The notes under the pieces were generated by a model that saw only the letters and a list, made by a program, of their open reading frames with translations, ran no database searches and was not told where the DNA came from. A stretch of 64,000 bases of DNA from Candidatus Nomurabacteria bacterium RIFCSPLOWO2_01_FULL_42_17 (lineage in GTDB: Bacteria; Patescibacteriota; Minisyncoccia; Phycocordibacterales; UBA9973), in contig MFVE01000005.1 in assembly GCA_001785985.1 (NCBI GenBank), forward strand, positions 233,771 through 297,770. Direction: 5' to 3'. This document shows positions 5,786-59,701 of this stretch, in pieces. How positions within the stretch are numbered: position 1 is the first letter of the stretch; each line of letters starts with the position of its first letter. The translations under genes were made by a program, and so were the position numbers.

Positions 5786-5960
5786 TCATACGGAGTGATA
5801 ATATCACAATTTATCTTTCAATGCAACTTTTTTGGATGGGTGTGGACAGGGTAGTAGATTTTGACGAAGCCCTTTGGGCGCGCTACGCGCATCGCCAAAA
5901 TTCACTACCCTGTGGATAAGTGAGATTGAGGCACTCTATAATAGAGAGTATAATGTGATT

Positions 5961-7178
5961 ATGAAAATTTCTTCTTTAAAAATTTCTTTTGGACTAGCTT
6001 TTTCTTTTTTTTCTTTCTTATTTTTCTTATTCTACTTATTCTCTTTGCCTTTTATCGCGGGAGCTGGAGATGATGACAATATGGCCGGCTACGCTTGGTC
6101 TTCAAACATCGGCTGGATCAGTTTTAATAACACAAGCGGCGGCGGGAGTGTAGATTATGGTGTGAACAAGAACGCTGATGGCACATTAACCGGCTACGCT
6201 TGGTCTTCAAACATCGGCTGGATAAAATTCGGTGGTCTTTCTGGTTTTCCTTCTGGGGCGCAGACATATGCGCAGAATGCAAATGTGAGTGACGGTGAGC
6301 TAAGAGGATGGGCGAGAGCTTGTGCTGGTATGGATGATGAACCGCCTACACCGCCGAACCAAACAACTCCCAATAATACTTGTAGTGGTGATTCACGTAC
6401 TGATGGTTGGGACGGTTGGATCTCTCTTGCTGGCACGGGCTATGGCGTAACTTTGTCCGGTACTAGTTTCGAGGGTTATGCTTGGGGCTCGGATGTTGTA
6501 GGCTGGGTTGATTTTAGTGGTGTTGTTGTCGGCGCCGGCACTGGTACCTGCACTGATAGCACCCAAAATGGAGACGAAACAGGCATTGATGCCGGCGGTC
6601 GTTGCGACGAGGGTACTTGCTCGGATGGCATCCAGAACGGAAATGAAACTGCGGAAGATAGTGGCGGCCGTTGCGGAGCTGGCACCTGCACTGATGGCAG
6701 TCAAAATGGAGATGAAACAGATATTGACACTGGTGGCCGTTGTGACGAGGGCACTTGCTCGGATGGCATCCAGAACGGAAATGAAACTGCGGAAGATAAC
6801 GGCGGCCGTTGCGGAGTTAGCACTTGCTCGGATGATACCAAGAACGGTAATGAAACTGCAGTTGATTATGGCGGTCGTTGTATTGTAGAAGGCGACTGGA
6901 GTGATTGGAGCCCATGCGTGGGCGGTGATCAAACTCGTACTTGTACGAATCCGCCACCTTCCGGCGGTGGAGCTAATTGTAGCGGACCTTCTTCGCGAGT
7001 TTGCGGTTCTTCCGAAGACGGTACTTGTTCCCAAACTCATTACGACTGTTCTTCTCAAGAGACGAGCATCAATCAGATCAGCAGCCCTACCAAGTGGACA
7101 TGGACTTGTCCTGGCTCAGATGGCGGCGCAGATATAATCTGCACCGAAACCAAACGGCCCGGATTTATAGAGGATTAA
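5961..7178 (+). CDS. Secreted Cys-rich repeat protein with thrombospondin-like motifs (pilus-adjacent putative adhesin)
   Basis: The start is moved to the ATG at 5961 (MKISSLKISFGLAF... signal peptide, preceded by tataat). The protein has three GYAWSSNIGWIxF repeats, five to six tandem ~21-aa units of TC(S/T)DGxQNG(N/D)ETxxDxGGRC, and then DWSDWSPCVGGDQTRTCTNPPP..C.G, which resembles a TSP type-1 repeat. Confidence 0.65.
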   Translation: MKISSLKISFGLAFSFFSFLFFLFYLFSLPFIAGAGDDDNMAGYAWSSNIGWISFNNTSGGGSVDYGVNKNADGTLTGYAWSSNIGWIKFGGLSGFPSGAQTYAQNANVSDGELRGWARACAGMDDEPPTPPNQTTPNNTCSGDSRTDGWDGWISLAGTGYGVTLSGTSFEGYAWGSDVVGWVDFSGVVVGAGTGTCTDSTQNGDETGIDAGGRCDEGTCSDGIQNGNETAEDSGGRCGAGTCTDGSQNGDETDIDTGGRCDEGTCSDGIQNGNETAEDNGGRCGVSTCSDDTKNGNETAVDYGGRCIVEGDWSDWSPCVGGDQTRTCTNPPPSGGGANCSGPSSRVCGSSEDGTCSQTHYDCSSQETSINQISSPTKWTWTCPGSDGGADIICTETKRPGFIED

Positions 7179-7194
7179 ATGTTATACTGTAAGG

Positions 7195-8958
7195 ATGCAA
7201 ATCGATGAGGAACAGTTTAAGAAATTTATTTTAGAATCCGGACTTGTTTCTAAAACAGACTTTGATTCCGCCGCCAAGACAGCGGAGGAAAAAAAACAAA
7301 AAATTGGAAATATTTTGCTTTCCGAAGGAAAAATATCTGAAACCGATCTAAAGCGAACGGAAGCTTTCGTTTTAGGGGTGCCATTCATTAGTTTGCTCAA
7401 TGAAAAAATTGATTCGGCTGTGCTTTCTCTGATCCCTGAGCCGATCGCGCGCAATTACAACATAGTTGCCTATACCAAAAGCGAGCATGGACTGGAAGTC
7501 GCGATGCTGGATATTGATGACTTGCCAGTAATTGATTTTATTAAAAAAACTTCCGGGCTGAAAATTTTACCCAGGTTGACCGACACTTCTTCGATCAAAG
7601 CGGTACTTGTGCAATATAGGAAAAGTCTCAAAGCGGAATTTCAAAATATTATCCAGAAGGAATCTTCCACCTCTTTTGGAACTCCCGCAGATGTTGACGC
7701 GGGGAAAGAAGGCGAAAAATCGGAAAAGGCGTTAAAAGATCTGGCCGAAGATTTGCCCGTGATAAAGATTGTTGACTCTTTGATTTTTCACGCAATTTTG
7801 CAAAACGCGTCCGACATTCATATCGAACCTGGAGAACGCGAGCTCACGGTGCGCTACCGGATAGACGGTATCTTGCATGATGCCATGGTGCTCGATAAAA
7901 CCGCCGGTTCAGGGATCACTGCTCGCATCAAAGTGTTGGCGAATCTGAAACTGGATGAAAAAAGACTGCCTCAAGATGGAAGATTCAAGAAAGAACAGGA
8001 TGGAGAAAAGATTTCTTTTCGTGTTTCCACCTTACCCACTTTTTTTGGAGAAAAAACTGTCATGAGAATTTTAAAAGAAAACGCGCACGGATTTTCTCTA
8101 GAAACTCTCGGCTTCCACGGCGAAGCACTGGAGCGCATCCATAATTCTTTAATCCAAAAGACGGGAATGGTGCTAGCCACGGGACCCACAGGCTCCGGCA
8201 AGACGACGACCCTTTACACCATGCTGGATATTTTAAATAAGCCGGAAGTCAATATCTCTACGGTGGAAGATCCGATTGAATATCAAATGCCGCGGGTGAA
8301 TCAGACTCAAGTCAAGCCGGAAATCGGTTTGACTTTTGCGAATGGTCTTCGCTCGCTCCTGCGCCAAGATCCAGACATCATCATGGTGGGCGAGATACGC
8401 GATGGCGAGACGGCGGGACTGGCGGTAAATGCATCGCTGACCGGACACTTGGTTCTCTCCACTATTCATACCAATAGCGCCGCGGGTGCGATCCCGAGAC
8501 TCATCGACATGGGTATCGAACCTTTTTTGATCACCGCGACGGTGAAAGTGATCATCGCGCAGAGATTGGTGCGCAGGCTTACTTCAAATAAGGAAAAATA
8601 TTTTTTGTCGGATGCCGAATTTAAAAATTTAGCTAGAGTTGTGGATCTAGATCGGGTCCTGACATTTCTGAAAACTGAAAACATTGTAGGCGCTAAAGAT
8701 ACTTGGGATAAAATTTCTTTTTATAAACCAGTCAAGAGTACTGAGTTCGAAGATGGCTATTCAAACCGGATCGGCATGCATGAAGTTTTAAAGATTTCGC
8801 CTACTATCAAAGATATGATTATTACCGGAAAGTCTCAAGATGATATAGAGGTACAGGCGAAAAAAGAAGGCATGATGACCATGTTAGAAGACGGAGTCTA
8901 TCAAGCCGTCCTCGGCGTGACTAGCCTAGAAGAAGTATTTCGAGTTGTTTCGGAGTAA
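7195..8958 (+). CDS. pilB: Type IV pilus assembly ATPase PilB (GspE family)
   Basis: T2SSE N-domain, Walker A GPTGSGKTTT, the Asp box and His box (VGEIRD, LTGHLVLSTIHTN). 587 aa. Confidence 0.9.
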   Translation: MQIDEEQFKKFILESGLVSKTDFDSAAKTAEEKKQKIGNILLSEGKISETDLKRTEAFVLGVPFISLLNEKIDSAVLSLIPEPIARNYNIVAYTKSEHGLEVAMLDIDDLPVIDFIKKTSGLKILPRLTDTSSIKAVLVQYRKSLKAEFQNIIQKESSTSFGTPADVDAGKEGEKSEKALKDLAEDLPVIKIVDSLIFHAILQNASDIHIEPGERELTVRYRIDGILHDAMVLDKTAGSGITARIKVLANLKLDEKRLPQDGRFKKEQDGEKISFRVSTLPTFFGEKTVMRILKENAHGFSLETLGFHGEALERIHNSLIQKTGMVLATGPTGSGKTTTLYTMLDILNKPEVNISTVEDPIEYQMPRVNQTQVKPEIGLTFANGLRSLLRQDPDIIMVGEIRDGETAGLAVNASLTGHLVLSTIHTNSAAGAIPRLIDMGIEPFLITATVKVIIAQRLVRRLTSNKEKYFLSDAEFKNLARVVDLDRVLTFLKTENIVGAKDTWDKISFYKPVKSTEFEDGYSNRIGMHEVLKISPTIKDMIITGKSQDDIEVQAKKEGMMTMLEDGVYQAVLGVTSLEEVFRVVSE

Positions 8959-8993: not shown

Positions 8994-9024
8994 GTACAGG
9001 TAGGGTGTTCCTCAAAAATAAACA

Positions 9025-9038
9025 GGGCACATGTGCCC
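9025..9038. promoter_or_regulatory. Perfect 14-bp palindrome GGGCACATGTGCCC between promoter and SD (candidate operator)
   Basis: Seen directly. It lies 15 nt upstream of the ATG at 9054, just before an AGGAG Shine-Dalgarno. Confidence 0.35.
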
Positions 9039-9053
9039 AGAAAGGAGTAAGAC

Positions 9054-9530
9054 ATGTCTTACTTTTCGTCGGGTCAGTTGAACCAGCTCGGGGACGCGCT
9101 GGAGAGAGCGGGATGGCTTCCCGAAGATGTGACTAATCTTGGTCAAGCGGGGAAAGCTCGCCTGGCTGAGATCAGACTGTCGCTCCAGAGAAATGACATC
9201 ATCACTCTGATTGAGACGAAGCAAACAGAGCCTTGGCTCCATGACGATCAAAAAGCGGATTTGATTGTTCAGGGCTATAAGATCTTGGCGTACCTCGATC
9301 AAAATGGCTTGCTTGATTCCTGCGCCAATCTCGGCGAACTGCGGTCCATCCAGTTCAAAGGGATAGAATTTTTCCAGCGATATTTCGCCGGCAAAGTTAT
9401 CTTTGGCTGGGGAGGGGTTGATGGTGAGAGCGTGCCATGCTTGTTCGTGTTTCAAGGGGAGGTGGTGCAGTCTCGGCGCCAACTCAACAATCGTTGGCAT
9501 ATAGATGACCCTGGTTTACGTCGCATTTGA
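9054..9530 (+). CDS. Hypothetical protein (158 aa) on a GC-rich insert inside the pilus operon
   Basis: Strong SD (aaaggag, N6, ATG). It has its own promoter and terminator and about 50% GC against a 35-40% background. No family recognised. The antisense ORF 9012..9500 is rejected. Confidence 0.55.
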   Translation: MSYFSSGQLNQLGDALERAGWLPEDVTNLGQAGKARLAEIRLSLQRNDIITLIETKQTEPWLHDDQKADLIVQGYKILAYLDQNGLLDSCANLGELRSIQFKGIEFFQRYFAGKVIFGWGGVDGESVPCLFVFQGEVVQSRRQLNNRWHIDDPGLRRI

Positions 9531-9561
9531 TTGCCACGGCGATAACGTCCATCCACACACA

Positions 9562-9607
9562 GGTGAGCTGTCGGATTATTCCGCGCTCACCCGTTTTTTA
9601 TTTTTAT
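9562..9607 (+). terminator. Rho-independent terminator after the 9054 gene
   Basis: ggtgagc-tgtcggattattccgc-gctcacc followed by ccgttttttatttttat. Confidence 0.6.
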
Positions 9608-9628
9608 ATGTTAAAATATAACCTACCG

Positions 9629-10846
9629 ATGCTTTTTTCTTACACAGCAAAATCAAAAGCGGGTGGAATCGTAGAAGGCGTGCAAAGCTCGGCGGATCGC
9701 CTCGCGCTCGCCCGGGAATTGCGCAGTCGCGGGGACATACCCTTGTCGATCAGAGAAAAAGATAAAAATTTTTTAGCTAAAATATCGACTCTTACAAATA
9801 TTTTTTCCAAAGTCAGTGTCAATGAGCAGATTATTTTCACCAAGAATCTAAGCGGGATGGTCAAGGCGGGGCTGTCCCTCTACCGAGCTTTATCTGTTTT
9901 AAAAAAGCAGACTAAAAATCCTAAAATGAGTACTATTCTAGCGTCTCTGACAGACGAGATAAATTCTGGAGGGACGCTTTCCTCTGGGCTGGCAAAATTT
10001 CCTGATGTTTTTTCAACTCTTTTTGTCTCAATGGCTAAAGCCGGTGAAGAGTCCGGCAATCTCGCCGGGGCGCTCTCGGATATTGGATTGAATTTAGAGA
10101 AGTCGCATGCTTTGACGAAAAAAATAAAAAGCGCGCTCATTTATCCGGGAGTTATTCTCTCCGCGATGGTGGTGATTGCCGTGCTGATGTTTGCTTTTGT
10201 GGTGCCGACTCTGGCCGGCACCTTCAAAGAGCTCGGGGTTACGCTACCCACTTCTACTCGCGTCCTCATTTTCATTGGTAATTTTTTCTCTCATCATTTA
10301 ATATTCACTTTTATTATTATCATTGGCATGGCTTTGGGCTTGTATCTGATTTTTCGCTCTAAATTTATGGCTAGATATATTGATTATATTATTGTTAGGC
10401 TTCCAATCATCGGGAATTTAGCCAAAGAATTAAATACCGCTCGCACTGCTCGCACCATGTCTTCTCTCTTGTCTTCTGGAGTCCCCATCACTCGTGCAGT
10501 CGAGATCACGGGAGACGTGGTTCAGAATATTTATTATAAAAAAGTTTTGAATGAAGCTAAAACTGGCATAGAAAAAGGCGCCCCATTTTCTAGAGCCTTT
10601 GAAATGAATAATAAACTTTATCCGGTTATGATGTCGGAAATGGTTCAAGTCGGGGAAGAAACCGGAAAATTGTCAGATATGCTGTTAGAAATTTCTTTGT
10701 TCTATGAAGGTGAAATTGAAAATAAAACTAAAAATCTCTCCACGATTATTGAGCCTCTCTTGATGATCGTGATCGGCGCGGGAGTTGGCTTTTTCGCCAT
10801 CTCGATGATTTCGCCACTTTATTCGATTTTAGGCAGTATAAAATAA
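9629..10846 (+). CDS. pilC: Type IV pilus platform protein PilC (GspF family)
   Basis: Two T2SSF repeats and three to four TM segments. The tracked ORF starts at a TTG at 9527. The start chosen is the ATG giving MLFSYTAKSKAGGIVEG (typical PilC N-terminus). An alternative ATG lies at 9608. Confidence 0.85.
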   Translation: MLFSYTAKSKAGGIVEGVQSSADRLALARELRSRGDIPLSIREKDKNFLAKISTLTNIFSKVSVNEQIIFTKNLSGMVKAGLSLYRALSVLKKQTKNPKMSTILASLTDEINSGGTLSSGLAKFPDVFSTLFVSMAKAGEESGNLAGALSDIGLNLEKSHALTKKIKSALIYPGVILSAMVVIAVLMFAFVVPTLAGTFKELGVTLPTSTRVLIFIGNFFSHHLIFTFIIIIGMALGLYLIFRSKFMARYIDYIIVRLPIIGNLAKELNTARTARTMSSLLSSGVPITRAVEITGDVVQNIYYKKVLNEAKTGIEKGAPFSRAFEMNNKLYPVMMSEMVQVGEETGKLSDMLLEISLFYEGEIENKTKNLSTIIEPLLMIVIGAGVGFFAISMISPLYSILGSIK

Positions 10847-16101: not shown

Positions 16102-17856
16102 ATGTCTGAATTACTTGATATTTTGCTTGAAAAAAGGGGGATTACACCCGAACAGAAAGATATTTTTTTGAATCCGGATTACAAGCGAGATTTACACGAC
16201 CCTTTTTTGATGCGAGATATGGAAAAGGCCTGCGTACGACTCTATGAAGCAATAGATAATAAAGAAAAAATCTTAATTTATGCGGATTATGATTGCGATG
16301 GGATACCCGGAGCGGTGATTTTGAATGACCTTTTTAAATTGATAGGGTATAAAAATTATGAAGTTTATATTCCGCAAAGAAATTCCGAAGGCTATGGACT
16401 CAATCTGGAAGCAATAAAAAAATTTGCTGAATCAGGCGTGAAACTTCTGATCACGATTGACCTCGGCATTACAGCCGTAGCGGAAGTGGCTCAAGCAGAA
16501 GTGGATGGCATTGATGTGATAATTACAGACCATCACTTGCCTCGCCTAGCTCAAAAAGATTCGCAAGCAGAGGATTTTCGAGCTGGTCTGGCCGGGGTGG
16601 GGGGCCCCGGGGAACCGAGGACCCGAGAAAATCCTCTGGTTGCTGAATCTTTCATTCTTCCTCGTGCTTGTGCAATCTTGAATCCGAAGGTAGACAGTTA
16701 TCCCGAAAAGATGTTGTGCGGGGCGGGGGTTGTTTTCAAATTTGTACAGGGATTTATAAAAAAATATGGCGAATATTTTAAGATTCGAGAGGGCGCAGAA
16801 AAATGGATGTTAGATATGGCTGGGCTCGCGACGCTTTCTGATATGGTTCCACTAACAGGAGAGAATAGAGCTTTGGCGTATTTTGGAATGAAGGTGTTAA
16901 AGAAATCTCCTCGTCCGGGCTTGCAAAAACTTTTAGCCAAGATGAATATTGAGCAGAAATATCTCTCGCCGGACGATATAGGCTTTATGGTTACGCCACG
17001 GCTGAACGCCGCGTCTAGGATGGATGATCCGATGCGGGCGTTTGAACTTTTGGCGACAGAAGACGAAGCGCAAGGTGGGATACTCGCGAATCATTTGTCT
17101 AAAATAAATGATGAAAGGAAAACCATTGTGACAAGTATCATGCGAGAAGTTCATAAGAAATTTGAAACGGAAACGACGTCTGAGGTGATAGTGATAGGCA
17201 ATCCGAAATGGCGAGTCGGCATCCTCGGATTAGTAGCGGGAAAAATTTGTGATCAATATGAAAAGCCCGTCTTTGTTTGGGGTAAAGATGAGAATGATTG
17301 CATCAAGGGGTCTTGTCGGAGCGATGGCTCGGTCTCGGTGGTAGAACTCATGACTGAAACTGCGGGATCTTTTATAGATTTTGGCGGTCATGAGCTGGCT
17401 GGGGGTTTTACGGTTGAAACTGAGAAAATTCATTTCTTACAAGAGCAATTGTCTTTGAATTTTAAAAAAGTGAAGCGAGATAAACTGGATGATATCGCAA
17501 ATTATGATATTAAGTCCGGCTTAGATATTGTCAATATGAAAAGCTGGCGTGAAATAGAGAAGCTTGAGCCTTTCGGACTGGGTAATTCCAAACCCATCTT
17601 CCTTTTTGAGGGAGCAAAAATAGAAAAAATAAAAAAATTCGGCAAAAATGGCTCTGGCGAGCATTTGGAAATTATTTTTTCTGATTCATCTAATTCTCAC
17701 GGTAAAAAAGCTAAAGCTATTTCTTTTTTCTCTAATATTGATTCTTTTAAAAAGAAATTGGAAGAAGGACTTGGTGTAAATTTGCTCGCCACTTTTGATT
17801 TATCTAGATTTAGAGGTAGGGAAGAGCTAAGATTGCGGATAGAAGATATTTTTTAA
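16102..17856 (+). CDS. recJ: Single-stranded-DNA-specific exonuclease RecJ (DHH/DHHA1)
   Basis: DYDCDGI and ITDHH motifs and a DHHA1 C-terminal region. It carries the in-frame 40-nt GC-rich repeat, translated as AGLAGVGGPGEPRT. Confidence 0.85.
   Translation: MSELLDILLEKRGITPEQKDIFLNPDYKRDLHDPFLMRDMEKACVRLYEAIDNKEKILIYADYDCDGIPGAVILNDLFKLIGYKNYEVYIPQRNSEGYGLNLEAIKKFAESGVKLLITIDLGITAVAEVAQAEVDGIDVIITDHHLPRLAQKDSQAEDFRAGLAGVGGPGEPRTRENPLVAESFILPRACAILNPKVDSYPEKMLCGAGVVFKFVQGFIKKYGEYFKIREGAEKWMLDMAGLATLSDMVPLTGENRALAYFGMKVLKKSPRPGLQKLLAKMNIEQKYLSPDDIGFMVTPRLNAASRMDDPMRAFELLATEDEAQGGILANHLSKINDERKTIVTSIMREVHKKFETETTSEVIVIGNPKWRVGILGLVAGKICDQYEKPVFVWGKDENDCIKGSCRSDGSVSVVELMTETAGSFIDFGGHELAGGFTVETEKIHFLQEQLSLNFKKVKRDKLDDIANYDIKSGLDIVNMKSWREIEKLEPFGLGNSKPIFLFEGAKIEKIKKFGKNGSGEHLEIIFSDSSNSHGKKAKAISFFSNIDSFKKKLEEGLGVNLLATFDLSRFRGREELRLRIEDIF
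16584..16623. repeat. GC-rich 40-nt palindromic repeat, family B, copy 2 (in-frame inside recJ)
   Basis: An exact copy of 14515-14554, positioned by counting codons from the recJ start. Confidence 0.8.
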
Positions 17857-17877: not shown

Positions 17878-18384
17878 ATGCCAGAGAAGAAAGGAGAAAA
17901 AATTACTATTTATACTGATGGCGCGGCAAAGGGGAATCCTGGGAGTGCCGGCTGGGGCGCGGTAATTATTTCCCATAATGACAAGTTGAAAGTTGAAAGT
18001 GAAAAGTTGAAAGTGGTAGAGATAGGTGGGAAAGTAGATCATGCAACAAACAACCAAATGGAATTAACCGCGCCAATAGAAGCGCTGAAATATCTAAAGA
18101 ATACAGAGGTTAAACCTATGTATTTAGAGATAATTTCCGACTCTAAATATGTAATACTTGGGATTACCGAATGGATTTTCAACTGGCAGAAAAATAATTG
18201 GCGGAATGCTAATAAAAAACCGGTTTTAAACCGCGAACTCTGGGAAGAATTGTATTCGCTCGTGTCGGCATTGAAACCAAGATGGACCTATGTCAAAGGC
18301 CACAATGAAGACAAATACAACGATCGCGCGGACCTCATCGCCACCAGTTTCGCGGAAGGCGAACCAGTGGAACTTAAAAAATGA
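17878..18384 (+). CDS. rnhA: Ribonuclease HI
   Basis: ITIYTDGAAKGNPGSAGWGAVI, HATNNQMEL and GHNEDKYNDRAD. It has an in-frame GTTGAAAGT-type tandem repeat coding KLKVESEKLKVVE. Confidence 0.85.
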   Translation: MPEKKGEKITIYTDGAAKGNPGSAGWGAVIISHNDKLKVESEKLKVVEIGGKVDHATNNQMELTAPIEALKYLKNTEVKPMYLEIISDSKYVILGITEWIFNWQKNNWRNANKKPVLNRELWEELYSLVSALKPRWTYVKGHNEDKYNDRADLIATSFAEGEPVELKK

Positions 18385-19922
18385 GGGATAGAATTTTTTA
18401 TGTAGTTTGTTTTGGTTTTATTTTTGGAGTGCTTTGGCGATCTTTTTTATTTATAGATTTATATTTAGTTTTACTTATTTTTCTGTTAGCATTAGCCTTA
18501 CTTCTCTACTTTAGCGCACTAAAGAACTTTAGTTCGATAAAGTATCGCTGGGATATAATATCGACCGTCTTTGTTTTAACTTTTTGTCTGGGAATTTTTC
18601 GATTTCATACGGTTGATGTGCCGGCGTCTAGAATTTTCGCATTGCAAATAGATCAAAAAGTATCTTTTTCTGGAATTATTATAGACGAACCGAATATTAG
18701 AGAAAATAATCAAAAATTAACTATAAGGACGGTCCTTAAAGAAGTTTCCCCAAGGACCGTCCTTGAAAAACCGGCTAAAACAAAAATTCTAGCTACCGTG
18801 AATCTCGGGGAGAATTTTAAATATGGCGATGAAGTTAATTTTTCGGGTAAATTAGAAAAACCAGAGAATTTTGTTACCGATCAAGGCAAAGATTTTGATT
18901 ACATAAATTATTTACGCAAAGATGGGATTTTTTATGTGATGAGTTATCCGGAAATTGAAATTGTCTCGCGCGGAAATGGAAATAAAATAAAAAGCACCCT
19001 GTTTTCTATCAAAGAAAAATTTTTAGAAAAAATGAATTTAGCGATCAAGCCGCCTGAATCGCTCTTGATGGGTGGGCTTATTTTAGGAGAGAAAGCTTCT
19101 TTCAGTCAGGAGCTCAGGCAAGATTTCATCGACACTGGCACGATCCATATCGTGGCTCTCTCTGGCTACAACATCACCATCATTGCGGAATGGATCATGA
19201 AATTATTTTCAAAAGTTCCTTATGTGGCAAAAAATTTTGGCATCGGCATGGGTATTTTTGCAATTTTTCTTTTCGTATTGATGACGGGTGCTAGCTCTAC
19301 TGCGATACGAGCGGGGATCATGGCGATCTTAGCACTCGTCGCTCGCGCGACTGGTAGGAATTATGATGTCGCTCGAGCTCTGATCTTGGCGGCGGTGGGA
19401 ATGATTTTATTAAACCCCTTTATTCTCGTCTATGATGTTTCTTTTCAGCTTTCTTTTATCGCCACCGTCGCGGTAATATTCCTCACGCCCAGAATTGAAA
19501 AATATTTTCTCTGGGTGACAGATTCTTTCAAGCTACGAGATGTAGTGTCAGTGACTTGCGCCGCGTATATTTTCGTTTTGCCTTTTATTCTGTATAAAAT
19601 GGGCAATCTTTCGCTGGTCGCCTTGCCGGCAAACATTTTTATTTTACCCTTTATTCCTTTCACGATGGGCTTGGGTTTTTTGACCGGCTTGCTGGGTCTG
19701 ATACATTATATTTTAGCCGTGCCTGCGGGCTACATTTCATATTTGTTTTTACACTATGAGCTCAGCATCATAAGTTTTTTTGCAAATCTGCCATTCGCCT
19801 CATTTATCATTCCAAATTTTCCGCTCATCTTAACGATTCTGATTTATGTCTATTTTATTTACCGACTTTTTGGCAGAAATATAAAGAATTTTTTTATTGA
19901 CAAACAGGGCATCACCTGTTAA
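18381..19922 (+). CDS. comEC: Competence protein ComEC/Rec2, membrane channel part (DUF4131 plus Competence domain), without the MBL domain
   Basis: Polytopic membrane protein with DTGTIHIVALSGYNITII (the ComEC signature). It ends with a stop before any MBL domain. Confidence 0.8.
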   Translation: MRDRIFYVVCFGFIFGVLWRSFLFIDLYLVLLIFLLALALLLYFSALKNFSSIKYRWDIISTVFVLTFCLGIFRFHTVDVPASRIFALQIDQKVSFSGIIIDEPNIRENNQKLTIRTVLKEVSPRTVLEKPAKTKILATVNLGENFKYGDEVNFSGKLEKPENFVTDQGKDFDYINYLRKDGIFYVMSYPEIEIVSRGNGNKIKSTLFSIKEKFLEKMNLAIKPPESLLMGGLILGEKASFSQELRQDFIDTGTIHIVALSGYNITIIAEWIMKLFSKVPYVAKNFGIGMGIFAIFLFVLMTGASSTAIRAGIMAILALVARATGRNYDVARALILAAVGMILLNPFILVYDVSFQLSFIATVAVIFLTPRIEKYFLWVTDSFKLRDVVSVTCAAYIFVLPFILYKMGNLSLVALPANIFILPFIPFTMGLGFLTGLLGLIHYILAVPAGYISYLFLHYELSIISFFANLPFASFIIPNFPLILTILIYVYFIYRLFGRNIKNFFIDKQGITC

Positions 19923-19980
19923 AAAGAGTTTAAATAGTAGTTGACAACAAAAAACAACAAAGCAGAAAGAGAGCGCAGTT

Positions 19981-20991
19981 ATGAAAAAAATAAAAAACCA
20001 GTCGAGCGTCAAGCTTGGAGTGGTAATGGTTCACCGTGGCTTCAATGCGCACAAGATGAATGGTAATCGCTTCGATTATGTGGTCGGGCTCGACTGGCTG
20101 ATTAAGCATTCACCCGTCGAGATCAGCGCGGTTCAGGTCCCCCTGTTTCCGGATCATCTCCGTGAAGGCAAGGGACTTGCCAAAACCAAGAGGCTTTTCA
20201 AGGAGCTGAGGAAACGCGTGAGATATGTTGTTCCTGTTCTGATGCTAACTACGAATCCACTCGATCCAAAAAACAAGTCGGAGGCGATAGAAACTCTTCG
20301 CAACGGTCTGGTGCAGTCTGGTGAACTTGGATCTGAGGTCTGTGCTGCAACATCCTTCGAGGCGTGGCTTGATGGAACCATTAATGGTCTAAAGCCGCTC
20401 AAGGGCAAAAAACTCAGGAAGGCGATTGATCTTCTGGTGGATATCCATGTCAGTGCAATACACGCTGCATATCAAGAGAGGTGTGGTGTGCAACGCTTGG
20501 ACATGGAGTATTTGCGTCCTGGTGAGTTCATCACCTTTACGAACATGCGCATCGCGCTTCGGGTGATTGGTGAAATCAATCGGAAATTGCAATGTGGCTT
20601 CATTTGCCGTCTACTCGACGACACTGCTCACGCCAAGGATTCCGGTCTCTCCATGAAAGATCAAAACAAAGTGCGGGGTATTTGTTCTTGTTCTGATAAT
20701 CATCATATAGGTACATGTCACGCATCCGAACCCACTACTCGTGGCGCACTTGGTAGCGGAGGTTCTGCTGTGGTGCAAGGCATTCGTTCCATGTACCGCC
20801 ATGGAAATCCTCGTACTCTCATGGTTGAAATCTTTGATTGTGAGGGGGAAGAAACGGCGCCGATGCGCCAGTACATCAAAGGATATGGGAAAAAGACCTA
20901 CCGTGACATCAACGTCGCCGTGGTAGAGGGTCTCATCCTGGTCCAGAATACTCTCAACCAGCTTGCTGGTGAAAGAAATCTCCTGGACTAA
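19981..20991 (+). CDS. Hypothetical protein, 336 aa, on a GC-rich (~50%) segment; no family recognised
   Basis: A long ORF with a compositional shift relative to its neighbours. It has an RBS-like agaaagagag upstream and a terminator hairpin downstream. Confidence 0.5.
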   Translation: MKKIKNQSSVKLGVVMVHRGFNAHKMNGNRFDYVVGLDWLIKHSPVEISAVQVPLFPDHLREGKGLAKTKRLFKELRKRVRYVVPVLMLTTNPLDPKNKSEAIETLRNGLVQSGELGSEVCAATSFEAWLDGTINGLKPLKGKKLRKAIDLLVDIHVSAIHAAYQERCGVQRLDMEYLRPGEFITFTNMRIALRVIGEINRKLQCGFICRLLDDTAHAKDSGLSMKDQNKVRGICSCSDNHHIGTCHASEPTTRGALGSGGSAVVQGIRSMYRHGNPRTLMVEIFDCEGEETAPMRQYIKGYGKKTYRDINVAVVEGLILVQNTLNQLAGERNLLD

Positions 20992-21010
20992 ACAAAATAT
21001 CGAAATCAAA

Positions 21011-21044
21011 CACCCCGGATAGCAATATCTGGGGTGCCTTTTTT
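21011..21044. terminator. Bidirectional terminator hairpin between the 19981 gene and the SOD gene
   Basis: caccccggata-gcaa-tatctggggtg followed by ccttttttatttt. The T-tract overlaps the SOD stop codon. Confidence 0.55.
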
Positions 21045-21636
21045 ATTTTGCTTTAGCAAAATTTTCTTCTATTACCTCCCAATTTAGATTTTCAAAAAAA
21101 GCTTCCACATATTTTTTCTTTTCGGAAGTTGGATAATCATATACGAAGGCGTGTTCCCACATATCGAGTCCGAGTATCCATTCCACACCGTTTAATTGTC
21201 CCAAATGCTGTTCGTCTATCCAGATGTGCACAAACTGGTCTGTTTTCTTGTCATAGCCCAAAACTGCCCAACCCACTCCGCGCGTCATGGCCAATATTTT
21301 AAAACTAGTCAGCCATAAATCAAAAGAAGGGGCCTGTTTTTCTATCGCCGCTTTCAATTTAGAATTTGCGGGCAGTGCTTTCTTTCCGCCTTCAAGAGAT
21401 TTGAAATAATATTCGTGATTTCTGATTCCGTTAAATTCGAAACTAAATCTTCTCTGCAATTCCCCGAGAATGTACATATTTTTTTCCGGGTCCGACATCA
21501 ATTCTCCTATTTTCTCCACGATTAAATTAGTGCTTTTCACATAGCCCGCATACAGCTTCAAATGTTCTTCTACATTTTTGGCCGATATGCCTTCGAGTGT
21601 CCCAATATTAAATTTTATTTCTTCAAATTTTTTCAT
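21043..21636 (-). CDS. sodA: Fe/Mn superoxide dismutase
   Basis: HEYYFKSLEGG and DMWEHAFVYDY (the DxWEHAYY motif). 197 aa. Confidence 0.88.
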   Translation of the reverse strand: MKKFEEIKFNIGTLEGISAKNVEEHLKLYAGYVKSTNLIVEKIGELMSDPEKNMYILGELQRRFSFEFNGIRNHEYYFKSLEGGKKALPANSKLKAAIEKQAPSFDLWLTSFKILAMTRGVGWAVLGYDKKTDQFVHIWIDEQHLGQLNGVEWILGLDMWEHAFVYDYPTSEKKKYVEAFFENLNWEVIEENFAKAK

Positions 21637-21652
21637 ATGCTAACATTATACC

Positions 21653-22522
21653 ATGATTCGAGACAAGAAAGGTTATGGTTTATTTATATTTGTTTTAATT
21701 CTGATTGCAATAAATATTTTCTTGTTTCATCAAGATTTTCGTTCTTTGGAAAAGAATCTTACTTTTGCGATGCTGGATGTTGGCCAGGGCGATGCGCTTT
21801 TTATCGAGTCGCCGACCGGTACGCAAATATTGATAGACGGAGGACCGCCCGGGAAAATAATGGGCGCTTTGCACCGCGTCATGTCTCCATTTGATAGACG
21901 GATAGATGCAATCATTATTACCAACCCAGATCAAGATCATATTGGCGGCTTTGCTGATATTCTGAAAGTTTATAAAGTGAATGGAGTATTTGAGCCTGGC
22001 ACGTTTAATGATTCTAAAATTTATCAAAATCTGAAAGAAGAAATAAAAAATAAAAATATTCCGGATATTTTAGCGAAAAAAGGGATGCGGCTTCATATCG
22101 GAGGCGGAGCGGTGATCGATATTTTATTTCCTGATCGCGATGTCTCGTTGTGGGATACAAATGATGGTTCAGTCGTGGCAAGGCTCTCTTATGGCGAGAC
22201 GTCTATAATGCTTACTGGTGACTCAACTTCAATAACAGAGAAAATAATTCTCAAAGAAAATTCTCCTGCGCGACTAGAGAGCACTATTTTGAAAGTTGGA
22301 CATCATGGTTCACGCACTTCTACTTCTCACGATTTTGTTAAAGCAGTTTCCCCGAAGTTCGCGCTTATCTCAAACGGCAAAGACAATAAATATGGTCATC
22401 CGCATCAGGATACACTGAGTACTTTAGCTCAGTTTGGCGCTAAAATTCTACGTACAGACCTGCTCAGAACTATTGTTGTTAAATCAAATGGATCCATGTT
22501 AAGATGGGAACATGCGAGATAA
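21653..22522 (+). CDS. ComEC-type MBL-fold metallo-hydrolase domain protein (standalone ComEC C-terminal domain with an N-terminal TM helix)
   Basis: FAMLDVGQGDALFIESP...ILIDGG, ITNPDQDHIGG, GHHGSRTS and HPHQDTL are the characteristic motifs of the ComEC Lactamase_B domain. Confidence 0.8.
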   Translation: MIRDKKGYGLFIFVLILIAINIFLFHQDFRSLEKNLTFAMLDVGQGDALFIESPTGTQILIDGGPPGKIMGALHRVMSPFDRRIDAIIITNPDQDHIGGFADILKVYKVNGVFEPGTFNDSKIYQNLKEEIKNKNIPDILAKKGMRLHIGGGAVIDILFPDRDVSLWDTNDGSVVARLSYGETSIMLTGDSTSITEKIILKENSPARLESTILKVGHHGSRTSTSHDFVKAVSPKFALISNGKDNKYGHPHQDTLSTLAQFGAKILRTDLLRTIVVKSNGSMLRWEHAR

Positions 22523-23756
22523 ACTAGTAGAAAAACTAATTAAAAGCGAAGAAAAAAGGCAGAGGGAGGGCTTGGAGCTTATTCCTTCAGAAAATTATGT
22601 CTCCGAAGATGTTTTGAAGGCGAATGGTTCTGTGTTTACCAATAAATATTCCGAGGGCTATCCCGGACGGCGTTATTACGGCGGACAGGAGTTTACTGAT
22701 GGGATAGAGCGTTTGGCTATTGAACGAATCTGTAAATTATTTAATTGTAAATTTGCAAATGTTCAACCGCATTCTGGCGCGCCGGCGAATCTCGCAGTGT
22801 ATGCTGCGTTACTTCAACCCGGAGACACAGTACTCGGCATGGATCTTTCTCACGGAGGACATTTGACGCACGGACATCCGATGACTCTGCCAGCGAAGAT
22901 CTATAAATTCGTAACATATAAGATGAAGAATCCGGAAACCGGAGAAATTGACTATGAAGATATGAGACGGGTGGCAATCGCAAACAAACCTAAATTAATT
23001 ATTGCTGGATTTTCTGCTTATCCGCGAACATTGGATTATAAAAAATTCGTGGAAATCGCGCGCGAAGTGGGCGCCGTCACGATGGCGGATATGGCGCATA
23101 TTGCGGGGCTCATCGCCGCGGGGGTTCTTCGTAATCCGTTTGATGATGGTTTTGATATCATCACTTCTACGACGCATAAAACTCTACGTGGTCCGCGCGG
23201 GGGAATAATTCTGACACGAGAGAGTGAAGAAATTGCCAAGAAAATTGATAAATCAATTTTCCCCGGTATCCAAGGCGGTCCGCATATGCACATCATTGCC
23301 GCTAAAGCTGTCGCTTTCGGCGAAGCCATGACGCCAAAATTCAAAAAGTACGCAGCGCAGATTCTGAAAAATGCCAAAGCGATGGCCGAAGTCTTGCGAA
23401 AAAATAAAATTCGCATGATCGGTGGTGGGACTGACAACCATCTCATTTTAGCGGATATTTTCGGCTCGCTGGGCGTGACTGGCAAAGAAGCGCAGACAGT
23501 GCTGGATGAAGTGGGTATCACTCTTAATATGAATTCGATTGCAGGGGATACAAGAAAACCTCTTGATCCGTCAGGTATTCGTTTCGGCACACCAGCGATT
23601 ACAACGCGAGGTTTTAAAGAGCGTGAATGCGCAAAAGTAGCGGAGCTGATGATCAGAGTTCTGAAAAATAAAGACGATAAAAAAGTAAAAGAGTCCGTCC
23701 ACAAAGAAATAAAAGCTCTAGCCAAAAAATTCCCGATACCAAAGAGGTTTGTGTAG
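22512..23756 (+). CDS. glyA: Serine hydroxymethyltransferase
   Basis: SHGGHLTHG and a PLP-binding context (TTHKTLRGPRGG). 414 aa. Confidence 0.92.
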   Translation: MRDKLVEKLIKSEEKRQREGLELIPSENYVSEDVLKANGSVFTNKYSEGYPGRRYYGGQEFTDGIERLAIERICKLFNCKFANVQPHSGAPANLAVYAALLQPGDTVLGMDLSHGGHLTHGHPMTLPAKIYKFVTYKMKNPETGEIDYEDMRRVAIANKPKLIIAGFSAYPRTLDYKKFVEIAREVGAVTMADMAHIAGLIAAGVLRNPFDDGFDIITSTTHKTLRGPRGGIILTRESEEIAKKIDKSIFPGIQGGPHMHIIAAKAVAFGEAMTPKFKKYAAQILKNAKAMAEVLRKNKIRMIGGGTDNHLILADIFGSLGVTGKEAQTVLDEVGITLNMNSIAGDTRKPLDPSGIRFGTPAITTRGFKERECAKVAELMIRVLKNKDDKKVKESVHKEIKALAKKFPIPKRFV

Positions 23757-57251: not shown

Positions 57252-57682
57252 CTTCTAGGTGCTAGTAACTAGGTTTTCTTGCTTTTTGCTTAAAAGTATA
57301 CTAATATAGGCATATGGAGCTTGCTCGCCGACAAGGCGAGTTATCCACATAATATCTTGCTCTATATTTGAGTGATGTATTATAATGTATTTGTATTTGT
57401 TTTCACTTTATTTTTCGCTTGCGATTTCGTCGAAAAAATTCCAAGTGATAATAAAGAGAAATAGATAGCCCGCTTTAGTTTCAAAAGCTTTGGCGCGGTG
57501 AAGGTCATTGAAAACCGAATAGCTATGTTTTCAATGTAAGGTTATATCTGTTCATTGTTTATTTGTCCGCCGCATTATTAACAATTATTAGTTTATTGGC
57601 GGATGAGAAATAGTGATAGAAAAATACGCTTTTAGTTTTGTCGAAACTTATTAATGGCGTAGAAAAATTAGAAAAATTTATG

Positions 57683-59701
57683 AGTAATATATTAAACTTA
57701 AAAGGAGTAAAGTTTTTTGCCATCATCGTGTTGGCAGTGGCTCTACTCGCGACATTCGGAATTGCCGCACAACAGGCAAGCGCGGATACAGTTTCGCTTT
57801 CTTCATGTCCTACCTTGAGACAAGGTTCGAGTGGTGATTGCGTTATGACTCTCCAAGCAATGCTTGACGGAGGTTTGGTAAGTGATGGAAAGTTTGGTCC
57901 GAAGACTGCATTAGCAGTTTCCGTGTTCCAAGCTGCCCACAATCTTACCGCTGACGCAGTTGTCGGTCCTATGACTAAGGCAGCATTGATGGGTTCAGTA
58001 GCTACTGGAAACTTTCCAGCAGGCTGTACGTCAGCTGCAGGTTATAGTTCTACAACTGGAGTAAAATGCGATACTGGACCTTCGACTGGACTTCCAGCTG
58101 GATGTTCTACAACCGCAGGATATTCTCCTCTAACCGGTGCAAAGTGTGATAGTAGTGTTCCAGCAACTCCTTCCGGTCCTTTGGCTGGTGGAGCAGGAGA
58201 CATTACTCTAACTCTACGCGGAACTTATTCTGGTGAAGAAGTTGGCGAAGGGGAGAAAAATGTAAAAGTTCTCGCAGTTGATGTTGAAGCTGATGATGAC
58301 TCTGATGTAGAACTTGATTCAGTTAAGGTTGAGTTCTTCCAGGCAACAACAGCTGACGACCGAGATTTACCAGATTACGCAAGCGAGGTGTCAGTATGGC
58401 TTAAGGGAGTAAAAGTTGGTAGTGCTGATACAAGCGACTTTACAGAATCATCTAACTTCTTTTCTAAATCAATCAACCTTGACGGTGCGATTGTAAGAGC
58501 AGGAGATGAGGATGAGCTAGTGATAGCCGTTTCAGCTAATAGTAGCCTAGACAGTGGTGATATTGATACAGATGCATGGCAGGTAGATATCGTAAGTGTT
58601 CGCTTTACCGATGCTTCTGGAGTTACTACCACTGAGTCAGGTTCCGCTGCAGCTACGGCTGGAGCTGGTACATACGGAAAACTATTTGACTTTGCTTCTT
58701 TTGCTACCGCAAATGACGCAGAGTTGACATTGTCTCTTGATGATGAAGAAATTAACGATGTTCATCTTCTTGATTCTGACGATACAGATGACACAGATCA
58801 CGCGATTACATCAGTTCTTTTTGATGCATCAGGTGATTCAGACATCTGGGTAGATGAAGTTGTAGCAACCATTACAACAACTGGAGAGGCAAATGAATCT
58901 CTTATTGTTGTCTCTACATGGATAGAGGTAGATGGAGTACGCATCAGTGAAAAAGAGACTGTTGCTGACGCAGGAGCTATAACTTACGATGATCTTGATT
59001 ACACGATTGACGCTGGAGATGAAAAAGAATTCATTTTCTGGGTAACTATGCAGAATGTTGATGGAGCGCTTGATGAAGGCGATACCGTTCAACTTACTGT
59101 TACTACCGCTTCAACCGTAGCAGAAGACGAAGCTGGAGATACAGTTACAGCTGCAGGATCAAACCCTGTCGGTGGAGTGCATCTTCTATACAATGACGGT
59201 TTCCGACTTGTCGGACACAGTCAAGTCGCAACCGCCTTCAGTACTGATGGTGTAAATAACGACCGCGTAGAGCTTGAGCTTATCTTTGACGTGTTTAACT
59301 ATGGTGATGTAACATTGTATATTCCTGATGGCGATACCTTTACTAGTACATCAACGAGTTCTAATGTTAGTGCACCAAGCACGACTGAGGAAGTGGGATA
59401 CCACATCCAGACTTCTGGAACGGTAACACCTCCATCAGCTCAGGTTTCCGCAGTGTTGACTGAGAGTGATTCTGATCTTACTCTAAAGACCAATTCATAT
59501 GAATTGAAGTCAGGAAAGACAGGAACATTCAACCTGAAAGTTACTATTTCGGCAGACGAGAATCCATCAATTGATAACGTTGGATTCCGAGCATTACTAA
59601 CAGGACTTGGCTGGGCAACATCTGATGTTGCTACAGCTGCTGTAGTGTACACTGCTGATCTAGGAGACTACAAGACAAATTACGCAACAATTGCTGACTA
59701 A
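57683..59701 (+). CDS. Secreted surface protein with a peptidoglycan-binding domain and three Cys-repeat units
   Basis: Signal peptide, a PG_binding_1-like CPTLRQGSSGDCVMTLQAML...GKFGPKT, three GC(T/S)..AGYS..TG.KCD repeats and a long acidic T/S/D-rich region. The tracked ORF starts at 57638. Confidence 0.55.
   Translation, partial: SNILNLKGVKFFAIIVLAVALLATFGIAAQQASADTVSLSSCPTLRQGSSGDCVMTLQAMLDGGLVSDGKFGPKTALAVSVFQAAHNLTADAVVGPMTKAALMGSVATGNFPAGCTSAAGYSSTTGVKCDTGPSTGLPAGCSTTAGYSPLTGAKCDSSVPATPSGPLAGGAGDITLTLRGTYSGEEVGEGEKNVKVLAVDVEADDDSDVELDSVKVEFFQATTADDRDLPDYASEVSVWLKGVKVGSADTSDFTESSNFFSKSINLDGAIVRAGDEDELVIAVSANSSLDSGDIDTDAWQVDIVSVRFTDASGVTTTESGSAAATAGAGTYGKLFDFASFATANDAELTLSLDDEEINDVHLLDSDDTDDTDHAITSVLFDASGDSDIWVDEVVATITTTGEANESLIVVSTWIEVDGVRISEKETVADAGAITYDDLDYTIDAGDEKEFIFWVTMQNVDGALDEGDTVQLTVTTASTVAEDEAGDTVTAAGSNPVGGVHLLYNDGFRLVGHSQVATAFSTDGVNNDRVELELIFDVFNYGDVTLYIPDGDTFTSTSTSSNVSAPSTTEEVGYHIQTSGTVTPPSAQVSAVLTESDSDLTLKTNSYELKSGKTGTFNLKVTISADENPSIDNVGFRALLTGLGWATSDVATAAVVYTADLGDYKTNYATIAD

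Follow-up and report, generated by a model that had tools for sequence, protein, structure and literature searches.

Two genes for one ComEC in a Nomurabacteria genome, with sod and a compositionally atypical gene between them

In a 64,000-nt stretch of the genome of Candidatus Nomurabacteria bacterium RIFCSPLOWO2_01_FULL_42_17 (contig MFVE01000005.1; the whole stretch is called the window below), the DNA-uptake protein ComEC is encoded in two pieces. The channel part, comEC_N (18381–19922, + strand), ends with a stop codon at 19922, and the metallo-beta-lactamase (MBL) domain corresponding to the ComEC nuclease is encoded by a gene of its own (21653–22522, + strand) that starts 1,730 nt further on. 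Between them lie a GC-rich gene (hereafter the middle gene; 19981–20991, + strand) and sod, encoding an Fe/Mn superoxide dismutase (SOD) on the − strand (21043–21636). The first-pass annotation had described these four open reading frames (ORFs), and all of them, with sod on the − strand, were confirmed at the same coordinates. It offered two readings of the arrangement: either the lineage naturally splits ComEC, or an insertion has disrupted an ancestral single gene. Which of these applies, and how the middle gene came to lie where it does, is the question raised by this locus. The explanation to which we attach a high degree of confidence is that ComEC is made here as two polypeptides, that this arrangement is ancestral to the lineage, and that the middle gene belongs to a cassette imported late.

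Two genes that together span ComEC

The product of comEC_N (513 aa) contains the Pfam domains DUF4131 (PF13567; 68.1 bits against a cut-off of 31.6; residues 26–194), which corresponds to the OB fold, and Competence (PF03772; 168.9 bits; residues 233–496), with multiple hydrophobic segments. The MBL protein (289 aa) begins with a single hydrophobic helix (residues 5–30 by hydropathy), followed by a ComEC-type MBL domain that matches Lactamase_B; the earlier description of a channel part closed by a stop codon and a separate MBL gene 1.7 kb downstream with its own transmembrane (TM) helix is borne out. On TIGR00361, the 663-position model of ComEC/Rec2, comEC_N covers positions 45–346 and the MBL protein positions 421–660, with separate scores of 98.3 and 146.1 bits, so that neither half reaches the equivalog cut-off of 190.05 bits. 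The same division is seen on the solved ComEC chain 30bt_A (801 aa), where comEC_N aligns to residues 88–465 (E 1.6e-24) and the MBL protein, including the preceding TM helix, to residues 513–789 (E 2.3e-36); the MBL protein also matches the solved ComEC 9ic4 (E 2e-36). Because the two halves are colinear with 30bt_A in this manner, the break point falls just before the last TM helix of ComEC, and both halves together miss nothing of the protein. Both are under purifying selection, with a ratio of non-synonymous to synonymous substitution rates (dN/dS) of about 0.10 for each in a comparison of the window with its relative L001, in which dS is near saturation.

The pair has the same three modules in the same order as the single-chain ComEC/Rec2 proteins (Moorella glycerini, Bacillus subtilis; 30bt_A, 9ic4_A; TIGR00361), namely the OB fold, the Competence channel, and the last TM helix with the MBL nuclease. 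It differs from them in that the modules are divided between two genes 1.7 kb apart, with separate predicted promoters and two unrelated genes in between, and in that the OB fold and the nuclease reside on different chains; the MBL domain, which in ComEC/Rec2 shares a polypeptide with the channel, is here a separate ORF of 289 aa. This last difference weighs against the two-polypeptide reading: higher nuclease activity in vitro is reported when the OB fold shares the chain (PMC12455585), and the window OB fold is on the other subunit.

A second point of the same kind concerns the nuclease motif. The first-pass annotation had read the motifs DVGQGDA, HxHxDH and HPHQDTL; the first and the last are present, and the second is incorrect, the actual reading being NPDQDH. 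The nuclease residues of the M. glycerini enzyme are H598-x-D600-x-D602-H603, D700, H725 and S728 (PMC12455585). The window protein has N91-P-D93-Q-D95-H96 together with D190, H217/H218 and S220, in which D93, D95, H96, D190, H217 and S220 match D600, D602, H603, D700, H725 and S728, respectively, and N91 takes the place of H598 as the sole residue of the set that is not conserved. In other words, the first His of the ComEC-type H-x-D-x-D-H motif is replaced by Asn. The H598A mutant of the M. glycerini domain is virtually inactive in vitro (PMC12455585), which weighs against activity in a clade whose first metal-binding His is Asn. The Asn variant (TNPDxDH; window codons at 21923–21940, I89-T-N-P-D-Q) is fixed in about 30 species of the Nomurabacteria type, whereas deeper Paceibacteria, other lineages of the candidate phyla radiation (CPR) and the fused ComECs that bear the motif keep His at that position. 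Its invariance in these species suggests a selected variant rather than decay. Asn is able to ligate metals, and a nuclease activity of the window protein is therefore plausible, although the inactivity of H598A means that it is not assured.

The replaced ligand also invites the idea that the MBL protein is an independent membrane hydrolase uncoupled from ComEC. Such an uncoupling would leave the channel either with no nuclease of its own, the situation in Helicobacter pylori, or with an inactive one, that of Streptococcus pneumoniae. The former ComEC has no MBL domain, and in the latter the MBL domain is inactive and EndA is present in addition (PMC12455585). The window channel polypeptide resembles both in having no nuclease domain; it differs in that a conserved, separately membrane-anchored MBL protein of the ComEC type is encoded close by, and no replacement of the EndA type is implied. 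The MBL gene overlaps glyA instead of comEC_N and is predicted to be transcribed separately, and stand-alone ComEC-like MBL proteins without a neighbouring comEC_N exist in Negativicutes, all of which would suit an independent hydrolase. On the other hand, the best matches of the MBL protein are by far the nuclease domains of ComEC (E 2e-36), it shares with ComEC a homologous TM helix as well as D93, D95, H96, D190, H217 and S220, its linkage to comEC_N is kept across CPR, and the substituting Asn is itself invariant in about 30 species. An uncoupled hydrolase is accordingly regarded as improbable, and a nuclease subunit of ComEC as the preferred identity of the MBL protein.

Stand-alone ComEC-type MBL proteins (about 290–390 aa) with no comEC_N homologue within 10 kb were recorded outside CPR in Dialister, Selenomonas and Veillonella of the Negativicutes (loci L056, L064, L067, L069, L084, L085 and others) and in Pyrinomonadaceae (L054, L059, L063). 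A separately encoded ComEC-like nuclease is thus not unique to Patescibacteria.

A split shared by relatives, with sod between the halves

The arrangement in relatives was surveyed in 80 loci from one-genome-per-species contigs, onto which the window proteins were mapped. Of 7,800 MBL homologues, the 120 best all come from Nomurabacteria or Paceibacterota and are free-standing proteins of 280–297 aa. The order comEC_N, sod in reverse orientation, and MBL gene was found in 32 related Nomurabacteria/Paceibacteria loci, over a range of MBL identity from 76% down to about 37%, usually with recJ-rnhA upstream and glyA-tmk-dut-argS downstream. In 28 of the 32, the stop codons of comEC_N and sod range from an overlap of 56 nt to a distance of 258 nt, and in many loci they overlap by exactly 17 nt. 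In six other CPR loci, including those of Uhrbacteria, Dojkabacteria and Kerfeldbacteria, the two halves lie side by side or overlap as ORFs in different frames, and sod does not separate them. Fused ComECs (684–896 aa) occur in 14 non-CPR loci, and among the surveyed loci fusions were seen only outside CPR.

The window itself fits this pattern. The recJ-like gene (16102–17856, + strand), which occupies the same place in about 25 related loci, opens the conserved run recJ-rnhA-comEC_N. It is followed by rnhA (17878–18384, + strand; RNase H, Pfam RNase_H, 126.5 bits), the stop codon of which overlaps the start of comEC_N by 4 nt; this overlap suggests that the two genes are translationally coupled. 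On the other side, the stop of the MBL gene overlaps the ORF of glyA (22512–23756, + strand) by 11 nt, and glyA lies 3′ of the MBL gene in most relatives.

These observations leave little room for an insertion, consisting of the GC-rich ORF with or without sod, that cut an intact comEC in this genome or in a recent ancestor. Such an event would account for two halves that flank 1.7 kb of unrelated DNA and for the atypical composition of the middle ORF. However, the break point is shared by the 32 related loci, including the 31 without the middle ORF, and it recurs, free of sod, in the six other CPR lineages. Both halves are conserved (dN/dS about 0.10, dS near saturation), the MBL gene has its own start codon, TM helix and conserved promoter-like motif, and nothing is missing relative to solved ComEC. 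The break point and sod long predate the middle ORF. Disruption of an ancestral single gene is therefore rejected, as the split is conserved in relatives and both halves are constrained, and we grant it only a very slight probability. A natural split in this lineage, the first of the two readings given above, is strongly supported by the 32 related loci and the six from other CPR lineages with separate halves. The first-pass annotation had also named what would refute its own observation of an unusual locus, namely close relatives that share the two-gene layout with sod in between and have a homologous middle gene of normal composition. The relatives do share the layout, including sod, and the middle gene is neither widespread among them nor normal in composition.

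That the fusion of ComEC with an MBL domain is essentially absent from CPR bacteria has already been published: a 2019 study (Meheust et al., PMC6744442) reported it from no more than six CPR genomes, and the window genome belongs to the group concerned. In the parts of that study consulted, the fusion is treated as missing, and a nuclease half that is kept as a conserved neighbour gene is not described. Literature searches yielded no explicit account of a two-gene ComEC in Patescibacteria, only the 2019 statement of the absent fusion. The new elements here are the persistence of the nuclease half as a conserved neighbour gene, the presence of sod between the halves throughout Paceibacteria, the Asn nuclease motif of the clade, and a conserved promoter-like element at the nuclease gene that points to a leaderless mRNA.

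Transcribed towards comEC_N and the middle gene and away from the MBL gene, sod holds its position between the halves across the lineage. Its product scores 70.6 bits for Sod_Fe_C and 22.7 bits for Sod_Fe_N, the latter below the cut-off of 27. A loss of the first His ligand was considered and rejected, because the full-length alignment to the best solved match (1coj, E 2.6e-25) places H25 there; the His of the NHE motif and the D-x-W-E-H motif are likewise conserved. Together these positions correspond to the His/His/Asp/His metal ligands of the family.

The divergent control region between sod and the MBL gene comprises only 16 nt (21637–21652; ATGCTAACATTATACC). The + strand carries TGCTAACAT, an extended −10 element that ends 6 nt before the ATG of the MBL gene and has its −7 T at 21646, and the − strand carries TGGTATAAT, a −10-like element that ends 8 nt before the ATG of sod. 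From these elements, the start site of the MBL transcript is predicted at the A of the ATG itself (21653), which would give a leaderless mRNA, and that of sod at about 21638, two nt before its ATG, which would make its mRNA leaderless or nearly so. When the sod/MBL spacers are aligned, 22 of 25 species show the motif TGnTAnnAT-TRTAnC at a distance of 0–3 nt from the start codon (ATG) of the MBL gene. Because the extended −10 motif abuts the ATG so consistently, the MBL gene probably has its own promoter, in common with sod, and transcription of the nuclease gene would therefore be separate from that of comEC_N. Symmetrical bidirectional promoters in enterobacteria have divergent start sites 7–25 bp apart (PMC10268837); the predicted start sites in the window, about 15 bp apart, would fall within this class.

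The gaps between the two subunit genes are recurrent insertion sites. Unrelated genes lie at the comEC_N/sod or sod/MBL junctions of other Paceibacteria, namely in L040, L041 and L042, which shows that insertion at these junctions is tolerated. The occupants are a 166-aa protein (L040:2292–3148), three ORFs (L041:7606–9998) and a 477-aa protein with an N-terminal hydrophobic segment (L042:7591–9325).

In relatives without the middle gene, the comEC_N/sod spacer contains an element that is found in opposite orientation in different species. The pairs L009:9262–9355 and L019:9215–9308, L011:9189–9383 and L026:9116–9286, and L020:9223–9280 and L029:9230–9286 are identical in reverse complement at 69/78, 106/120 and 31/33 positions, respectively, and only about 20 nt match in the forward direction. 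At its borders, the 3′ ends of comEC_N and sod form short inverted repeats, and an Rfam search of L009, L011 and L017 gave no match to it. The element may represent an invertible segment or a module for termination in both directions.

The gene at the comEC_N/sod junction

The middle gene is rare. It encodes a protein of 336 aa whose family forms four 90%-identity clusters among 5.8 billion proteins, three of which are CPR copies located exactly at the comEC_N/sod junction; a profile search recovered 84 representatives at 50% identity, many of them fragments, among 1.84 billion proteins. A locus scan was run with a 7-sequence alignment of the family. Among CPR loci, the gene was found only in the window, in L001 (55% identity), in L004 (70%), and in L005 and L006, two short contigs from other samples in which the window protein recurs at 99–100% identity. 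It is absent from the comEC_N/sod junction in 31 of the 32 related loci, and other members of the family are almost all outside CPR.

As the window genome was assembled from a metagenome and the GC content of the middle gene differs from that of its flanks, an assembly chimera was also considered. In L001, however, comEC_N, the middle gene, sod and the MBL gene follow in order, the end of comEC_N, the middle gene and the start of sod are present in L004, and L005 and L006 have the middle gene beside sod at the high protein identity given above. A chimera is ruled out by these independent assemblies, which show the same junctions, and its probability is next to nil.

The compositional deviation of the middle gene is genuine but moderate. 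The GC content of the gene, estimated at about 50% in the first-pass annotation, was measured as 0.492, and that of its third codon positions (GC3) as 0.516, compared with 0.405 for the window; it is the second highest of 53 ORFs. The z-scores are 2.0 for GC, 1.7 for GC3 and −1.9 for codon usage (the second most atypical), and the tetranucleotide distance of the 1-kb segment over the gene has a z-score of 2.3. The gene is richer in GC than its flanks in the window (0.49 and 0.38), in L001 (0.47 and 0.41) and in L004 (0.54 and 0.37–0.40). With a dN/dS of 0.11–0.14, the middle gene is evidently functional; in the comparison of the window with L001, its dN is roughly double the value for the flanking genes. 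The window and L001 form a sister pair in a neighbour-joining tree built from concatenated comEC_N, SOD and MBL proteins, a topology that fits a single gain of the gene.

The foreign origin suggested by the first-pass annotation is upheld by the absence of the gene in nearly all related loci, by its GC-richness relative to the flanks in all carriers and by the occurrence of its other relatives outside CPR; we infer a genuine, recent acquisition across phyla, probably from outside CPR. Several observations weigh against this conclusion or soften it. The deviation in composition, whether in GC, codon usage or tetranucleotides, is just about two standard deviations; homologues on two non-CPR contigs also exceed their surroundings in GC, so that part of the GC signal may be intrinsic to the gene family; and the internal branches of the neighbour-joining tree are short and carry no bootstrap values, which leaves a single gain unproven against repeated loss or transfer between Nomurabacteria. 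Moreover, no transposase or integrase ORF is present between 19922 and 21043, and no hallmarks of a mobile element flank the gene.

An alternative is that the gene is ancestral to Nomurabacteria and has been lost repeatedly, its GC-richness following from amino-acid composition. The three CPR copies are more diverged (55–70% identity) than the flanking genes (about 74%), and members of the family are richer in GC than their own contigs in non-CPR hosts as well, both of which are in its favour. This alternative is nevertheless unlikely, because 31 of the 32 related loci lack the gene at the junction, many of them with overlapping stop codons of comEC_N and sod, the carriers group together in the flanking-protein tree, GC3 is raised and not GC1 and GC2 alone, and almost all other family members reside outside CPR. 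Late acquisition remains the favoured history of the middle gene.

No carrier of the gene was recognized among mobile elements: the signs of an insertion sequence, a transposon or an integron cassette were not found, as there is no transposase or integrase and, in place of terminal inverted repeats or a target-site duplication, the only flanking repeats are A/T-rich ones of 11 nt, none of them meaningful. The hairpin motif CAACGGCCGTGTC occurs on the upstream side of the gene in L004 and on the downstream side in L001. The idea that it marks an insertion boundary was discarded, since the window has no such motif at that site and the motif resembles an ordinary palindromic hairpin.

The absence of a recognizable family, stated in the first-pass annotation, holds at the level of sequence profiles: the window protein has no match in Pfam (E <= 0.1) or NCBIfam, which is a further reason for caution, and a 21-sequence family profile gave only noise against PDB sequences (E >= 0.24). 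A fold is nonetheless predicted. AlphaFold2, run on a 4-sequence alignment, gave a model of eight beta/alpha units (pLDDT 76, pTM 0.82), and this predicted (beta/alpha)8 barrel is superimposable on solved xylose-isomerase-like proteins; the top Foldseek matches in the PDB are D-allulose, D-tagatose and L-ribulose 3-epimerases and “sugar phosphate isomerase/epimerase” proteins (E about 4e-9, TM 0.65–0.76). PF01261 (AP_endonuc_2) is matched by three of 21 aligned family members (best E 7.7e-9), but not by the window protein. Thirteen positions are invariant across the 21 sequences, including E176, D214, H217, H247 and E283, which lie at the C-terminal ends of predicted strands 5–8. The spacing of E176, D214, H247 and E283 resembles that of the Glu/Asp/His/Glu metal site of ketose 3-epimerases, to which they may correspond. 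The protein differs from the PF01261 TIM barrels, such as the ketose 3-epimerases 7dz2, 5zfs and 4xsl and the uncharacterised Anabaena protein 2qw5, in that identity is just 14–17%, in that it lacks any sequence-level match in Pfam, NCBIfam and the PDB, and in that its family is very small. The best reading is that the middle protein, a member of a small uncharacterised family of xylose-isomerase-like TIM barrels, may act as a metal-dependent enzyme of the sugar isomerase/epimerase type.

Distant homologues (25–31% identity; 80 metagenome loci), some of them named as Akkermansiaceae or Verrucomicrobiales, occur in two kinds of context. In one, the gene is clustered with those for another xylose-isomerase-like protein, a Gfo/Idh/MocA oxidoreductase and ThuA. 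In the other, it lies directly 3′ of genes for a Fur-family regulator and an unannotated HExxH protein (250 aa), which hints at metal-responsive control of the enzyme family. The Fur-family context was noted in many marine and lake contigs (L098, L119–L126, L132–L136, L146–L159).

Two relatives, L001 and L004, have an element of 100 nt ahead of the middle gene (L001:3208–3307, L004:434–533), with 84% identity between the copies. Its predicted fold consists of three hairpins within a 7-bp closing stem, with folding z-scores of −3.7 and −3.0, and of its 35 consensus pairs one shows a compensatory change and six show one-sided changes, with none broken. The leader has no match in Rfam. Searches of L001, L002, L004 and L005 at E <= 1 yielded nothing relevant, nor did a search of the window at the gathering threshold, in which no family was found at all. 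A covariance model of the leader found no further copy in 53 sources, among them the window itself and the sequences that precede the gene in its nearest homologues outside CPR. On its sequence and predicted fold, the element is a candidate cis-regulatory or riboswitch-like RNA.

In the window, the leader is replaced by a terminator-free spacer of 58 nt (19923–19980), in which a trace of the 3′ half of the leader stem is retained. No terminator separates comEC_N from the middle gene, and a strong one follows it (21011–21046, + strand; an 11-bp stem with 6 G-C pairs at 21011–21036, then a T-run), so that the middle ORF does have its own terminator, as had been claimed; a homologous hairpin lies 3′ of the gene in L001 and L004. 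Located at the stop codon of sod, the terminator may serve that gene as well. Because the leader is missing and no terminator precedes the gene, the middle gene of the window is probably read through from the recJ-rnhA-comEC_N operon, with transcription stopped at 21011–21036.

It is tempting to speculate further that a small cassette, composed of the 100-nt leader, the TIM-barrel gene and the terminator, moves between phyla, with the middle gene as its enzyme-coding part, and that the window copy would have lost its riboswitch-like leader and now be carried along by read-through from the comEC operon; this extension is doubtful. If, moreover, the leader senses the substrate of the enzyme, it would represent a new riboswitch class and a clue to what this orphan family of enzymes does in CPR bacteria.

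Other parts of the window also deviate in composition. A GC-rich ORF of 162 aa (9012–9500, − strand; GC 0.51, GC3 0.58) has the most atypical codon usage in the window. It lies between a T2SSE/PilB-like ATPase gene (7195–8958) and a T2SSF/PilC-like gene (9527–10846), on the strand opposite to these pilus-type neighbours, adjoins prepilin genes and has no Pfam match. The type IV pilus-type genes (T2SSE, T2SSF, prepilin) are located 7–11 kb upstream of comEC_N. The strongest tetranucleotide outliers are 57638–59701, where z reaches 3.3–3.9 over a 687-aa ORF with a GC3 of just 0.29, and 5874–7250, where z is about 3 around 6.0–7.25 kb and the longest ORF has an implausible GC2 of 0.57.

A model for the locus and its significance

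The favoured model is that a channel subunit, comprising the OB fold and the Competence domain, would be made from the recJ-rnhA-comEC_N operon, and a nuclease subunit, comprising the last TM helix and the MBL domain, from its own gene by way of a leaderless mRNA and an extended −10 promoter. Both subunits would presumably assemble in the membrane into the architecture of single-chain ComEC, with the OB fold and the nuclease facing outward, such that one DNA strand would be degraded and the other imported. With regard to history, the split of comEC would already have been present in CPR bacteria, and sod would have lodged between the halves in an ancestor of Paceibacteria. Much later, a foreign cassette consisting of the TIM-barrel enzyme gene and its terminator would have entered the convergent comEC_N/sod junction in a small subclade of Nomurabacteria, its structured leader being lost in the window genome.

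The comEC of this organism is not a pseudogene, and the DNA-uptake capacity of this CPR bacterium should not be scored as lost. The imported TIM-barrel gene provides a concrete case of cross-phylum gene gain in a streamlined CPR genome. The Asn-for-His motif, the retention of sod between the halves and the predicted compact divergent promoter lend themselves to testing, and the separation of the OB fold from the nuclease is a natural experiment for recent work on the cooperation of these two modules on one chain. More broadly, Patescibacteria keep the ComEC nuclease as a separate membrane-anchored subunit, which bears on genome-based predictions of competence and nucleotide scavenging in these bacteria.

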